Shown: in pieces, positions 21,366-25,059 of the stretch
Layout of the letters: each line of letters begins with the position of its first letter
Numbering within the stretch: the stretch's first letter is position 1
Source: Escherichia coli
GTDB lineage: Bacteria; Pseudomonadota; Gammaproteobacteria; Enterobacterales; Enterobacteriaceae
NCBI RefSeq assembly: GCF_003334815.1
Contig: NZ_QOWO01000023.1
DNA: 64,000 bases
Strand: one strand, 5' to 3'
The notes under the pieces: generated by a model
The model's database searches: none
The model's input: the letters and a program-made list of their open reading frames with translations, nothing else
What the model was told of the DNA's origin: nothing
Position numbers and translations under genes: made by a program

Positions 21366-22466
21366 ATGTCAAATGCTCAAGAGGCGGTAAAAACCCGCCA
21401 CAAGGAGACTTCGCTTATTTTCCCGGTTCTGGCGCTGGTAGTGCTGTTCCTGTGGGGAAGCAGCCAGACACTACCAGTGGTCATTGCCATCAATCTTCTT
21501 GCGCTTATTGGTATTTTAAGTAGCGCCTTTAGTGTTGTCCGTCATGCGGACGTATTAGCCCATCGCCTGGGAGAACCTTACGGTTCGCTTATTCTTAGCC
21601 TTTCAGTGGTTATTCTTGAAGTCAGTTTGATTTCAGCTTTAATGGCAACCGGCGACGCCGCGCCAACGCTAATGCGTGATACGCTCTATTCAATCATTAT
21701 GATTGTTACCGGTGGGCTGGTTGGCTTTTCATTATTGTTGGGCGGTCGTAAGTTTGCCACCCAATATATGAATCTGTTTGGTATCAAGCAGTATTTAATT
21801 GCGCTGTTCCCCCTGGCGATAATCGTACTGGTATTTCCAATGGCTCTGCCTGCGGCGAATTTTTCAACCGGTCAGGCGTTACTGGTAGCATTAATTTCTG
21901 CGGCAATGTATGGCGTATTTTTGCTGATCCAGACCAAAACGCATCAAAGTTTGTTTGTCTACGAGCACGAAGATGACAGTGATGATGACGACCCGCATCA
22001 CGGTAAACCGTCTGCCCATAGCAGCCTGTGGCATGCTATCTGGTTGATTATCCATCTGATTGCCGTTATTGCGGTGACCAAAATGAACGCCAGCTCGCTG
22101 GAGACATTGCTCGACAGCATGAATGCCCCTGTCGCCTTTACTGGCTTCCTGGTGGCACTGTTGATTCTGTCGCCGGAAGGTTTAGGTGCATTAAAAGCAG
22201 TGTTGAACAACCAGGTTCAGCGCGCGATGAATCTGTTCTTTGGTTCAGTGTTAGCAACCATTTCGCTTACCGTACCTGTCGTCACGCTAATTGCCTTTAT
22301 GACGGGTAACGAATTGCAGTTTGCACTTGGTGCGCCAGAAATGGTGGTGATGGTGGCCTCTTTAGTGCTGTGCCATATCTCCTTCTCCACCGGACGTACT
22401 AACGTGCTCAATGGCGCAGCGCATCTGGCACTGTTTGCCGCCTATTTGATGACGATATTTGCCTGA
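21366..22466 (+). CDS. chaA: Na+(K+)/H+ and Ca2+/H+ antiporter ChaA
   Basis: 366 aa from ATG at 21366 (MSNAQEAVKTRHKETS...); track ORF has a 29-codon upstream extension. Confidence 0.93.
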   Translation: MSNAQEAVKTRHKETSLIFPVLALVVLFLWGSSQTLPVVIAINLLALIGILSSAFSVVRHADVLAHRLGEPYGSLILSLSVVILEVSLISALMATGDAAPTLMRDTLYSIIMIVTGGLVGFSLLLGGRKFATQYMNLFGIKQYLIALFPLAIIVLVFPMALPAANFSTGQALLVALISAAMYGVFLLIQTKTHQSLFVYEHEDDSDDDDPHHGKPSAHSSLWHAIWLIIHLIAVIAVTKMNASSLETLLDSMNAPVAFTGFLVALLILSPEGLGALKAVLNNQVQRAMNLFFGSVLATISLTVPVVTLIAFMTGNELQFALGAPEMVVMVASLVLCHISFSTGRTNVLNGAAHLALFAAYLMTIFA

Positions 22467-22757
22467 CAGTTATATCTCCTCCGATGACGGTAATCGGGGG
22501 AGATAATATAAATTCCTGCTTATTGTATTTCTTCATACTACCTGGACAGGTCGTTAATCAGAATTGCGAGCCTGTACCACACCCTGCACGAAACCACTGC
22601 AACAGCTGTTGAAAAGCCGGAATGTACTCTTCATTGCAAACATTTCAGGGATGAAGTGAAGATGAATTGCGACGTAGTATCCACACCAAGCCGGCGTTAT
22701 CCGGTGAGGCGCAATGTTGCGGGGCTTTATCCCTGGTGGCATTGGTTGCTGGAAAGA

Positions 22758-22826
22758 GAAAACCCCCGCACGTTGAGAGGTAAAACCTGACAACAAAACG
22801 GGGGCTAATCTTGAAACCAGACACTT
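22758..22826 (-). ncRNA. rdlC: Rdl antisense RNA (type I antitoxin), copy C
   Basis: position about 44-110 nt upstream of ldr ATG on opposite strand as recalled for K-12; minus-strand hairpin cccccg...cggggg followed by U-run at 22758; coordinates approximate. Confidence 0.45.
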
Positions 22827-22869
22827 CAAGAATAGCCGCAAAATGTTGTCATTACAACAAGGCGGCTAT

Positions 22870-22977
22870 ATGACGCTCGCGCAGTTTGCCATGATTTTCT
22901 GGCACGACCTGGCAGCACCGATCCTGGCGGGAATTATTACCGCAGCGATTGTCAGCTGGTGGCGTAACCGGAAGTAA
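22870..22977 (+). CDS. ldrC: type I toxin-antitoxin small toxic peptide Ldr (35 aa)
   Basis: ATG..TAA ORF encoding MTLAQFAMIFWHDLAAPILAGIITAAIVSWWRNRK; below the 60-aa cut-off of the ORF track; copy letter assigned from gene order next to chaA. Confidence 0.9.
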   Translation: MTLAQFAMIFWHDLAAPILAGIITAAIVSWWRNRK

Positions 22978-23292
22978 GGTGAAAACGGGCGTCAGGCTGC
23001 CGTGATGGCAATATGCGCCCGAAACCGGCCGCAGGGGTAACAGCCTGCGGCCATTTTTGTCTTTATCTCTTCCACAAGTAAATATTGGCAACCCGAGCTG
23101 GAAGCATCATCCAGAGCACTCATGAAACGACTGCAACAGCTGTTGAAAAGCCGGAATGTACTCTTTATTGCAAACATTTCAGGGATGAAGTGAAGATGAA
23201 TTGAGACGTAGTATCCACACCAAGCCGGAATTATCCGGTGAGGCGCAATGTTGCGGGGGCTTTATCCCTGGTGGCATTGGTTGCTGGAAAGA

Positions 23293-23361
23293 GAAAACCC
23301 CCGCACGTTGAGAGGTAAAACCTGACAACAGAACGGGGGCTAATCTTGAAACCAGACACTT
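23293..23361 (-). ncRNA. rdlB: Rdl antisense RNA, copy B
   Basis: same position in second LDR unit; coordinates approximate. Confidence 0.45.
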
Positions 23362-23404
23362 CAAGAATAGCCGCAAAATGTTGTCATTACAACAAGGCGG
23401 CTAT

Positions 23405-23512
23405 ATGACGCTCGCGCAGTTTGCCATGATTTTCTGGCACGACCTGGCAGCACCGATCCTGGCGGGAATTATTACCGCAGCGATTGTCAGCTGGTGGCGT
23501 AACCGGAAGTAA
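23405..23512 (+). CDS. ldrB: type I toxin Ldr (35 aa)
   Basis: identical 35-aa peptide ORF in second LDR unit. Confidence 0.9.
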   Translation: MTLAQFAMIFWHDLAAPILAGIITAAIVSWWRNRK

Positions 23513-23827
23513 GGTGAAAACGGGCGTCAGGCTGCCGTGATGGCAATATGCGCCCGAAACCGGCCGCAGGGGTAACAGCCTGCGGCCATTTTTGTCTTTA
23601 TCACTTCCACAAGTAAATATTGGCAACCCGAGCTGGAAGCCTCATCCAGAGCACTCATGAAATGACTGTAACAGCTGTTGAAAAACCGGAATGCACTCTT
23701 CATTGCAAACATTTCAGGGATGAAGTGAAGATGAATTGAGTCGTAGTATCCACACCAAGCCGGCGTTATCCGGTGAGGCGCAATGTTGCGGGGGCTTTAT
23801 CCCTGGTGGCATTGGTTGCTGGAAAGA

Positions 23828-23896
23828 GAAAACCCCCGCACGTTGAGAGGTAAAACCTGACAACAGAACGGGGGCTAATCTTGAAACCAGACACTT
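23828..23896 (-). ncRNA. rdlA: Rdl antisense RNA, copy A
   Basis: same position in third LDR unit; coordinates approximate. Confidence 0.45.
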
Positions 23897-23939
23897 CAAG
23901 AATAGCCGCAAAATGTTGTCATTACAACAAGGCGGCTAT

Positions 23940-24047
23940 ATGACGCTCGCGCAGTTTGCCATGATTTTCTGGCACGACCTGGCAGCACCGATCCTGGCGG
24001 GAATTATTACCGCAGCGATTGTCAGCTGGTGGCGTAACCGGAAGTAA
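23940..24047 (+). CDS. ldrA: type I toxin Ldr (35 aa)
   Basis: identical 35-aa peptide ORF in third LDR unit, adjacent to kdsA. Confidence 0.9.
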   Translation: MTLAQFAMIFWHDLAAPILAGIITAAIVSWWRNRK

Positions 24048-24096
24048 GGTGAAAACGGGCGTCAGGCTGCCGTGATGGCAATATGCGCCCGAAACC

Positions 24097-24128
24097 GGCC
24101 GCAGGGGTAACAGCCTGCGGCCTTTTTT
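24097..24128 (+). terminator. intrinsic terminator of the third ldr unit
   Basis: hairpin ggccgcagg...cctgcggcc followed by T6; equivalent hairpins at about 23027..23058 and 23562..23593. Confidence 0.7.
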
Positions 24129-24195
24129 GTATCCGGCACCCATGAAAAAAGTCTTAACGCAGAACGCTAATACTTTATTTTTCAAGCAAAAAAGA

Positions 24196-25059
<864 letters not shown>

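Follow-up and report, generated by a model that had tools for sequence, protein, structure and literature searches.

The interval between chaA and kdsA in the window (the whole 64,000-nucleotide stretch of DNA analysed here) is almost certainly the LDR-C/B/A array of the E. coli K-12 chromosome, made up of three intact tandem type I toxin–antitoxin (TA) modules. Gene order is that of K-12 (chaA–ldrC/rdlC–ldrB/rdlB–ldrA/rdlA–kdsA), the interval aligns collinearly with ldrA/rdlA, ldrB/rdlB and ldrC/rdlC as annotated in NC_000913.3, and RefSeq annotates three “Ldr family” toxins at the array. Each unit carries what places it among the type I systems, namely a small hydrophobic toxin ORF and a cis-encoded antisense RNA overlapping the toxin mRNA. 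The present analysis establishes the identity, anatomy, conservation and sense–antisense complementarity of the array. The locus is already well known and no new kind of element; a textbook element hidden by ORF-length filters has been correctly rediscovered, no new biology is added, and the initial annotation shows that type I TA modules can be recognised from raw sequence.

Self-alignment of the window delimits a tandem array of 2.9 units with a period of 534/535 bp; the three direct repeats are spaced 534 and 535 nt from start to start, which upholds the ~535-bp repeats first described (Table 1). A 300-nt core is ~100% identical among the units (22721–23020, 23256–23555 and 23791–24090). 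Pfam, Rfam and collinearity with the NC_000913.3 annotation all agree with the original assignment of these repeats to the ldr genes.

Table 1. Features of the LDR array and its flanks (positions in the window)
Feature	Position	Strand	Basis and remarks
chaA, flanking gene	21366–22466	+	
Whole LDR array	22587–24130	.	Between chaA and kdsA; repeat alignment and annotation; ends approximate
Predicted ldrC −10 hexamer TAGTAT	22675–22680	+	Conserved position; start predicted at ~22688
Predicted ldrC mRNA, ~373 nt	22688–23060	+	182-nt 5′ UTR, 83-nt 3′ UTR
rdlC antisense RNA, 66 nt	22757–22822	−	Rfam 91.8 bits; fold z = −5.1; annotated in NC_000913.3
Candidate leader ORF, 20 codons, TTG start	22811–22873	+	SD 22800–22804; copies at 23346–23408 and 23881–23943
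Predicted rdlC promoter	22829–22857	−	−10 TATTCT 22829–22834, −35 TTGTAA 22852–22857, 17-nt spacer
Initiation hairpin AUAGCCGC...GCGGCUAU	22832–22869	+	Inner GUUGU/ACAAC stem
ldrC CDS (35 aa + stop)	22870–22977	+	ORF, Pfam, NC_000913.3 annotation, alignment
ldrC intrinsic terminator	23027–23060	+	Stem-loop site 23027–23052, T-run; 9-bp stem, 8 GC pairs
Predicted ldrB −10	23209–23214	+	Same motif
rdlB antisense RNA	23292–23357	−	Rfam 91.4 bits; fold; NC_000913.3 annotation
ldrB CDS	23405–23512	+	Product identical to ldrA/C here; MG1655 differs at 23430, 23449, 23489
ldrB intrinsic terminator	23562–23595	+	Site 23562–23587, then T-run
Predicted ldrA −10	23744–23749	+	Same motif
rdlA antisense RNA	23827–23892	−	Rfam 91.4 bits; identical to rdlB here; fold
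ldrA CDS	23940–24047	+	ORF, NC_000913.3 annotation, alignment
ldrA intrinsic terminator, array end	24097–24130	+	Site 24097–24122, then T-run
kdsA, flanking gene	24196–25050	−	

The toxin ORFs are exactly as first reported: identical 35-codon frames with ATG at 22870, 23405 and 23940, all translating to MTLAQFAMIFWHDLAAPILAGIITAAIVSWWRNRK. The peptide matches Pfam Ldr_toxin (PF13940) over its full length (residues 1–35 of 35, model positions 1–35; E = 1.8e-24) and is 57% identical to the LdrD structure PDB 5LBJ (E = 1.5e-10). NCBIfam lacks an Ldr-specific HMM and returned a weak Fst match below cut-off (E = 0.022), and Pfam was used for family assignment instead. MG1655 itself has an LdrB that departs from LdrA/C by I9T and S29G; three identical peptides are a trait of the present strain or assembly, not of MG1655. 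The ORF list shows the toxin genes as frames of 44 aa, since another in-frame ATG lies further upstream (22843 in unit 1); this longer frame was rejected, the corresponding ldrD codon being ACG and out of frame. Excess LdrA or LdrD causes growth arrest, ATP collapse and nucleoid condensation, as summarised in PMC8309996 (citing Yamaguchi 2014, Kawano 2002). The LdrA peptide of the literature, for which toxicity was shown, has the same sequence as the array peptides.

Antisense RNA genes lie opposite each ldr leader. Rfam rdlD (RF01813) matches the minus strand three times over model positions 1–66 of 66, with scores well above the gathering score of 50 bits, and a minus-strand hairpin plus U-run, detected by terminator scan and folding, coincides with each match. 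The predicted Rdl shape is a 16-nt single-stranded 5′ tail followed by the terminator stem-loop (fold z = −4.5 to −5.1). The initial annotation was thus right about the opposite strand and about the hairpin with its U-run, and slightly off in the offset: Rdl covers nt 48–113 upstream of each ldr ATG, with its 5′ end at 48 nt, not 45–110. Scanning 20 related loci gave an opposite-strand rdlD match in all but one, a Klebsiella MAG (L023); in each of the 19, its 5′ end sits ~48–52 nt before the ATG. By virtue of the antisense arrangement, Rdl and ldr mRNA are perfectly complementary over 66 nt. The predicted rdlC promoter, read from sequence and from conserved columns of the homologue alignment, overlaps the ldrC translation-initiation hairpin. 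EcoCyc still lists rdlA, rdlB and rdlC as “putative”; Northern and dsRNA evidence was found for rdlD only (PMC7373196). RdlD is reported to repress ldrD (Kawano 2002, as cited in PMC4147584), an RNase III product of ~21 nt maps to the ldrD/rdlD overlap (PMC7373196), and Rdl inhibits ldr translation by a mechanism described as “currently unknown” (PMC8309996).

Candidate ldr promoters are weaker matches, suggested by cross-species conservation: GTAGAAT, GTAGTAT or GTAATAT is position-invariant in 30 homologous loci, and a scan with the strict sigma-70 consensus found no promoter within the interval. That all three units are transcribed is assumed on the basis of the K-12 literature, with predicted starts near 22688, 23222 and 23757. 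In the Reg-Seq preprint, ldrD and rdlD appear as targets only, without a usable result. The predicted ldrC mRNA folds with a single-sequence MFE of −161.8 kcal/mol (z = −6.2), a structure that includes closure of the 5′ and 3′ ends. The intrinsic terminator previously placed after each ORF was found in all three units, in a scan that returned 10 terminator-like sites against 2.2 expected.

The three units of MG1655 (LDR-A/B/C; NC_000913.3 1269168–1270460) share locus, flanks, order and unit length with the array, from which they differ by 9 substitutions that reflect strain-level variation or possibly an assembly artefact. Alignment to annotated ldrA/B/C and rdlA/B/C bears out the initial identification: unit 1 equals LDR-C over 545 nt, unit 2 has 3 differences from LDR-B, and unit 3 has 6 from LDR-A. 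The three in ldrB make it encode the LdrA/C peptide, and the six on the rdlA side (23853; 5′ tail 23886–23890; 23894, just outside the RdlA RNA in the rdlA promoter-proximal region) give rdlA the 5′ tail and loop of rdlB. Between the units of the window there are a 1-nt indel (G-run near 22722), one substitution in rdl (22796, A versus G) and 6–10 substitutions in the promoter-proximal part, in line with the few SNPs and the indel noted earlier. With RdlA equal to RdlB and RdlC 1 nt apart, the copies of this strain are all but interchangeable, and cross-repression among units is therefore expected.

The homogenised sites could be gene conversion or strain-level variation, or could be an artefact of assembly polishing. 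That the near-identity of the copies arose in assembly or short-read polishing is a serious possibility, although we lean against it. All 9 of the 9 differences from MG1655 make a copy resemble its neighbours, one copy's state being replaced by that of the other two, as majority-rule polishing with multi-mapped reads would give; the only 100% match to the window locus is the J53 assembly, itself hybrid; and among other K-12-derived assemblies the number of homogenised sites rises in steps from 0 through 3 and 9 to 11. However, single-copy-specific SNPs in the promoter-proximal part are kept, natural human and pig isolates show the homogenised state too, at 99.9% identity, and across genera the array evolves in concert. 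Compared with MG1655, the window has an additional tRNA-Tyr unit and 8 SNPs in unique sequence, and so belongs to a genuinely different lineage.

Judging by the sequences compared, the array evolves in concert. The claim that its units are older than the tRNA-Tyr duplication cannot be upheld, since the divergence of tandem copies is no clock here: copies in one genome resemble each other more than they do those of other species, the 5,422 E. coli genomes hold between 1 and 9 copies, and K-12-derived assemblies differ by conversion-like tracts. The locus is a concerted-evolution hotspot, with such tracts differing even among K-12 laboratory strains; because copy number and tracts vary, copy-specific assays and short-read assemblies of the locus call for caution.

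Conservation of the mRNA was assessed in 29 homologous ldr mRNAs from six genera, with a consensus computed by RNAalifold. Both UTRs are conserved more than the coding sequence. In the consensus 98% of cells are paired, and 9 pairs show compensatory changes, a number reached by 1 of 500 shuffles (slid controls, 0–5). The initiation hairpin corresponds to helices 166–173/200–207 and 179–183/188–192 (97–99% of cells paired); its inner stem covaries from U-A to C-G (CG 19, UA 9). Its last base directly precedes the ldrC AUG, and it is predicted to occlude the spacer between the Shine–Dalgarno (SD) sequence and the AUG. Just upstream, where the Rdl 5′ tail pairs, a second hairpin (CUUGAA...UUCAAG; columns 143–146/161–164; window 22810–22830) covaries as well (UA 22, CG 4; GC 21, AU 2). 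An alternative duplex between the initiation region and the 3′ UTR, whose conserved block lies at 22990–23020, is 90% paired, compared with 34–54% in slid controls; the initiation region cannot adopt the local and the long-range pairing at once. Fold-back complementarity stands at 100% and 87–90% of cells paired with few double compensatory changes, the long-range helices showing mostly invariant positions or one-sided changes, and the competing local hairpin is equally conserved. The 5′–3′ helix 30–35/356–361 never varies among the homologues, so covariation neither supports nor refutes it.

The experimentally characterised paralogue ldrD/rdlD (LDR-D; NMR structure 5LBJ) has the same architecture as the array units: a 55-nt stretch of 5′ UTR is identical, Rdl again lies 48 nt from the AUG, and the hairpins and the conserved 3′-UTR block are shared. 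Unlike the array, it is single-copy and lies at another chromosomal site in K-12, and RdlD differs from the array Rdl in its 5′ tail and inner stem.

One reading of these features, of somewhat less than even probability, is an ldr mRNA of hok type with an unrelated toxin, whose 3′-UTR block would fold onto the 5′ end and the SD/AUG region, and in which Rdl would target a hairpin loop rather than the start of a leader ORF. In the explanation we favour, the plus strand of each ~535-bp unit would yield a very stable, highly structured mRNA of ~370 nt encoding the 35-aa Ldr, a hydrophobic inner-membrane peptide, and the minus strand an unstable 66-nt Rdl which, according to the literature, prevents the effects of the toxin post-transcriptionally. 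The translation-initiation region of ldr would be intrinsically closed, either by the local hairpin ending at the AUG or by the conserved 3′-UTR segment folding back onto it, and the mRNA 5′ end (GGCGC) would pair with GCGCC in the 3′ UTR, a hok-like fold-back. The single-stranded Rdl 5′ tail would then meet the loop and 5′ arm of the covarying upstream hairpin, and contact would extend to a 66-bp duplex that covers the G-rich SD and UUG start and serves as an RNase III substrate. As an outcome, ribosomes would find neither entry nor an opened path to the ldr AUG, and the mRNA would be cleaved. We infer this order of events; the decisive step would be occlusion, refolding or cleavage.

Similarities to hok/sok (plasmid R1 and chromosomal hok loci) include a stable toxin mRNA paired with a short unstable antisense RNA, an antisense target in the 5′ leader and not at the toxin ribosome-binding site, a 5′ tail left single-stranded in the antisense RNA, and a duplex cleaved by RNase III (PMC4147584, PMC7373196); the predicted fold-back of the ldr 3′ UTR on the 5′ end and initiation region would be a further likeness. 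In contrast, the toxins are unrelated, an obligatory mok-like leader ORF is not conserved in ldr, hok-like 3′ processing of ldr mRNA is not documented, and ldr is essentially chromosomal and non-mobile (plasmid survey; PMC2887945). Plasmid-borne or mobile carriage was considered and rejected: an ldr unit occurs in 22 of 72,556 plasmid records, all 22 non-mobilizable and several of them megabase-sized “plasmids”. Ldr groups with Fst (par of pAD1, RNAI–RNAII), a homologue sharing the transmembrane helix, PxxxG, conserved Trp and charged C-terminus (PMC2887945, PMC7472228). The Fst antitoxin RNA lies opposite the 3′ end and acts via direct repeats at the 5′ end, unlike Rdl, which lies opposite the 5′ UTR (PMC2887945).

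Coupling of mok/hok type, in which ldr would be translated only after an upstream ORF (“ldrX”) whose start Rdl blocks, is rather unlikely. The idea was proposed by Gerdes and Wagner (as cited in PMC4147584); the literature calls ldr/rdl hok/sok-like and the ldrX proposal unconfirmed (PMC4147584, PMC7472228). Two candidate ORFs were tested. The first, starting at a UUG whose G-rich SD and start lie under Rdl, is found in 24 of 29 homologues; its frame is open to the ldr AUG in all 24 (17 in frame, 5 ending in AUGA, 2 ending 17 nt downstream), and in the window it ends in ATGA at every ldr start, its TGA overlapping the ldrC ATG. In ldrD, a 1-nt insertion puts the UUG in frame instead. The second start (SD GGUGAGG plus AUG/GUG; 22714 in unit 1) is kept in 29 of 29. 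Against this, UUG is UCG or UCA in all five Klebsiella homologues, with compensating changes that keep the hairpin, and in K. oxytoca no upstream ORF extends as far as the ldr AUG. The end of the second ORF varies between columns 69 and 145 and in its frame, falling 59–135 nt short of the ldr AUG; in three Klebsiella it comes ahead of the Rdl site. Openness of the UUG frame is weak evidence, because two of the three frames of the 60-nt interval are open in any case, and an in-frame UUG would extend the Ldr N-terminus, where a tag abolishes LdrA toxicity (PMC8309996). A leader ORF could still operate in E. coli; the comparative data speak against it as a universal mechanism. If the hok-like reading with a hairpin-loop target is true, the long-standing ldrX leader-peptide model would be dispensable, given the Klebsiella homologues without the leader ORF. 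The target hairpin, initiation hairpin and predicted 3′-UTR fold-back offer concrete, testable elements of Rdl action.

Ribosome standby is an unlikely explanation. In tisB/IstR-1, the standby site lies far upstream of a structured ribosome-binding site; for ldr, the 30S subunit would load on unstructured 5′ UTR far upstream and Rdl would compete with it. The Rdl site, 48–113 nt upstream of the structured initiation region, lies at a distance comparable to that of the standby site in tisB, and a nearly invariant A-rich stretch, GGAAAGAGAAAA, lies immediately 5′ of it. However, the Rdl target is predicted to be mostly helical rather than single-stranded, mirroring the terminator hairpin of Rdl, and no experimental hint of standby for ldr was found in the literature.

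That the copies are decaying duplicates, or that the real genes are the minus-strand ORFs, is highly improbable: such ORFs do exist and deletion of ldr loci has no known phenotype (PMC7472228), but each of the three units retains its ORF intact together with promoter motifs, terminator and Rdl, and 5,422 of 5,426 complete E. coli genomes have one copy or more. The only ORFs of at least 60 aa in the interval are eight minus-strand frames of 61–95 aa, with no NCBIfam match, no RefSeq annotation at the locus, and frames and boundaries not conserved in the homologues; their original dismissal as artefacts is thereby justified. One of them is 95 aa long in unit 1 and 65 aa in unit 2, the 1-nt indel having shifted its frame.

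The three-unit array between chaA and kdsA in the window is, by sequence comparison, the already known LDR-A/B/C array of E. coli K-12; for its toxicity, transcription and repression the analysis relies on published work. Over its full length the Ldr peptide matches Pfam Ldr_toxin (E=1.8e-24), and it also matches the solved LdrD structure 5LBJ with 57% identity (E=1.5e-10). Rfam rdlD is matched at full length in each unit (see table). Each Rdl has its 5' end 48 nt upstream of the ldr ATG, matching the reference annotation, and is predicted to fold into a 16-nt free 5' tail followed by a stem-loop terminator (z = -4.5 to -5.1). Megablast gave matches in all 5,426 complete E. coli genomes searched, with 'type I toxin-antitoxin system toxin Ldr family protein (x3)' annotated under the match in the chaA-kdsA interval. 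The curated MG1655 record carries ldrA/rdlA, ldrB/rdlB and ldrC/rdlC collinearly at this site, in the orientation opposite to the window. Alignment to these annotated loci, proposed as a check with the initial annotation, gave no difference between unit 1 and LDR-C over 545 nt, 3 changes between unit 2 and LDR-B, and 6 between unit 3 and LDR-A. Because these lines of evidence agree, the initial annotation was right in naming ldr toxin genes with antisense Rdl RNAs encoded on the opposite strand upstream of each ATG. All the features of membership that sequence can test were found: an Ldr toxin (Pfam), an rdlD RNA (Rfam), the K-12 LDR array and a type I toxin-antitoxin arrangement.

Coordinates of the features in the window
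Feature	Coordinates	Strand	Remark
tRNA-Tyr(GUA) genes	5655-5739, 5949-6033, 6243-6327		RtT element after each
Near-identical 300-nt core, all three units	22721-23020, 23256-23555, 23791-24090		Repeat search
ldr ATGs	22870, 23405, 23940	+	Same 35-codon frame MTLAQFAMIFWHDLAAPILAGIITAAIVSWWRNRK in each
GC-rich 9-bp stem, then T-run, 3' of each ldr ORF	23027-23052, 23562-23587, 24097-24122		Terminator scan
rdlD full-length matches	22757-22822, 23292-23357, 23827-23892	-	Rfam, 91-92 bits, gathering score 50
Predicted ldr -10 element	22675-22680		
Predicted ldr transcription start	near 22688		
Candidate leader, UUG ORF	22811-22873 and equivalents in other units		SD and start under Rdl; stop overlaps ldr ATG
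Candidate leader, AUG/GUG ORF	starts 22714 in unit 1		Downstream of GGUGAGG SD
Single-base differences from NC_000913.3 (MG1655)	6757, 8331, 10506, 13040, 20716, 20960, 21192, 30023		Unique sequence

Inspection of 22200-24600 and an independent repeat search found three direct copies, 534 and 535 nt from start to start. Three-way alignment places the repeated region at ~22587-24130, and the first ~70 nt of unit 1 are unique chaA-side flank. Across rdl, ldr and the terminator (22726-23052) only 1 base varies among the units, and the one substitution within rdl is at 22796. The promoter-proximal part carries 6-10 substitutions between units, and a single 1-nt indel falls in the G-run at ~22722. 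A minus-strand hairpin with a U-run lies upstream of every ldr ATG; in the same scan, terminator-like sites numbered 10 against 2.2 expected. The initial observation of ~535-bp triplicate repeats, with identical 35-codon ORFs, a terminator after each, minus-strand hairpins plus U-runs upstream of the ATGs and a few SNPs and a 1-nt indel between units, is confirmed in every particular, the ORF positions being exact.

ORFs of at least 60 aa in the interval number eight, all on the minus strand and 61-95 aa long. None of them matches NCBIfam or is annotated in any RefSeq record examined, and neither frame nor boundaries are conserved among 29 homologues; the 1-nt indel changes the frame between units 1 and 2 (95 aa vs 65 aa). 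Lacking family match, annotation and conserved frame, they are rejected as genes: structured, GC-rich sequence produces them as artefacts, as had been supposed for the 60-100-aa frames.

Of the 5,426 E. coli genomes, 5,422 carry the ldrABC-type unit, in 11,993 copies altogether (median 2, range 1-9 per genome). Among 60 evenly spaced records, 14 carry one copy, 19 two, 25 three and 2 four. The unit is essentially chromosomal; plasmid carriage amounts to 22 of 72,556 PLSDB records, all non-mobilizable. The PLSDB records with the unit (H86-H100) include 4.8-4.9 Mb entries, evidently chromosomes filed as plasmids.

The Klebsiella oxytoca group, E. whittamii and a cryptic Escherichia clade (Escherichia sp. 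E1V33) likewise have tandem arrays, made of 2-3 units that repeat every 477-539 bp. The D-type (ldrD) locus is duplicated in tandem in E. coli SCPM-O-B-8794 and Escherichia sp. E1V33. Comparison loci for these arrays and duplications are L025 (606-1790), L026 (1087-2265), L024, L006, L008, L019 and L022. Paralogues in every array are 93-99% alike, closer than to copies of other species. Such likeness means concerted evolution or lineage-specific duplication, the conclusion of Fozo et al. (PMC2887945), and because of this unit divergence does not date the duplication. With copy number ranging so widely and paralogues so alike, the claim that the units are older than the tRNA-Tyr duplication fails. 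Two loci from the survey stand apart. In the Pseudocitrobacter vendiensis ldr (L010, 1201-1305) codon 31 is an in-frame stop, and the gene is probably a pseudogene. A 503-bp contig of a 'Bacillus sp.' assembly (L027, coverage 0.66) carries an ldrD-type gene with an E. coli-like 5' UTR and is almost certainly enterobacterial contamination.

Strain-level variation of the array is mildly new, in that it is conversion-like among laboratory strains. A hybrid assembly of J53, a K-12 derivative, matches the window at 100% identity, whereas MG1655 differs from it at nine bases within the array. Through the changes at 23430, 23449 and 23489, LdrB (T9, G29 in MG1655) takes on the LdrA/C sequence, and those at 23853 and 23886-23894 give the rdlA 5' tail and loop the rdlB sequence. 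Each of the nine replaces one copy's own state with that of the other two. Compared at 23331, 23430-23489, 23853-23894 and 23866 (against L001, L002, L036 and L037), homogenisation rises stepwise among K-12-derived assemblies: MG1655 has 0 homogenised sites, PG20180053 3, J53 9 and TOP10 11. The pattern may reflect short-tract gene conversion recurrent among K-12 lines, a process that yields such one-copy-to-majority changes. It may also be an artefact of majority-rule short-read polishing, which yields the same pattern. Outside the repeats, about 27 kb of unique sequence shows 8 differences from MG1655 and no indels; 7 are transitions, 5 of these MG1655 G to window A. This mostly G:C to A:T pattern is consistent with a K-12 line that has been mutagenised, J53 for example. 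The window (region 5650-6510) also holds three tRNA-Tyr copies vs two in MG1655 (tyrT, tyrV); two of the units (5650-5943 and 5944-6237), 294 nt each, differ at 1 base, and the extra unit is either a product of unequal crossing-over or an assembly effect. The unique-sequence differences and the third tRNA-Tyr unit therefore mark a genuinely distinct K-12 lineage.

According to the literature, overproduction of LdrD or LdrA is toxic: the nucleoid condenses, ATP falls within minutes and growth stops. RdlD blocks ldrD translation. The Rdl mechanism was termed unknown in reviews up to 2021 (PMC8309996). An RNase III product of roughly 21 nt maps to the ldrD/rdlD overlap (PMC7373196). Mildly new comparative structural evidence on how Rdl acts comes from 30 related loci in species-representative genomes of Escherichia, Kluyvera, Pseudocitrobacter, Citrobacter, the Klebsiella oxytoca group and Salmonella, from which 29 predicted mRNAs were aligned (26 fetched loci, two window units and K-12 ldrD). 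A GTAGAAT/GTAGTAT motif, fixed in position upstream in the homologous loci, places the predicted -10 element and start site. The resulting mRNA of about 373 nt agrees with the roughly 370 nt of ldrD mRNA.

Conservation is higher in the 5' UTR and a 3'-UTR block than in the coding sequence. The RNAalifold consensus has 98% of cells paired, with compensatory changes in nine pairs, a number reached by 1 of 500 shuffles (slid controls, 0-5). It comprises a covarying 5'-terminal hairpin; an invariant helix of 5' end and 3' UTR (GGCGCA/UGCGCC); a mirror image of the Rdl terminator hairpin; a covarying CUUGAA...UUCAAG hairpin, whose 5' arm and loop are the exact pairing partner of the free Rdl 5' tail; a hairpin AUAGCCGC...GCGGCUAU with a covarying inner stem, whose last base immediately precedes the AUG; and a helix joining the first codons with the 3' UTR. 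In an alternative fold (single-sequence MFE -161.8 kcal/mol, z = -6.2) the entire initiation region pairs with the 3'-UTR block, a pairing for which 90% of cells are paired across homologues vs 34-54% in slid controls. Both folds are predicted to shut the ldr ribosome-binding site, and the predicted architecture resembles that of hok mRNA.

The system has also been described as hok/sok-like, with an untested leader ORF, 'ldrX', analogous to mok (PMC4147584, PMC7472228). The UUG candidate occurs in 24 of 29 homologues and reaches the ldr AUG in every one of the 24. All five Klebsiella sequences replace UUG with UCG or UCA, with compensating changes that preserve the hairpin, and in this 29-homologue comparison K. 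oxytoca has no upstream ORF extending to the ldr AUG. The AUG/GUG candidate has its start conserved in 29/29, within conserved helices, and its stop is spread over 76 alignment columns in varying frames, 59-135 nt before the ldr AUG. What is conserved is the RNA structure rather than a reading frame. A mok-like leader does not define the family; some contribution of one in E. coli is conceivable but doubtful. A tisB-like standby mechanism is a still less likely reading. The ldr/rdl system would work like hok/sok in outline but is not a member of that family, because its toxin belongs to the Fst/Ldr superfamily and no mok-like leader ORF is shared family-wide.

In Kluyvera genomosp. 3 and Citrobacter sp. 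FP75 (L009 and L032, about 1040-1305) the conserved upstream AUG ORF is fused in frame with ldr, giving 87-88 codons. Elsewhere in the window, and unrelated to the array, Rfam C0299 sRNA is matched at 62508-62586 on the minus strand (111.9 bits).
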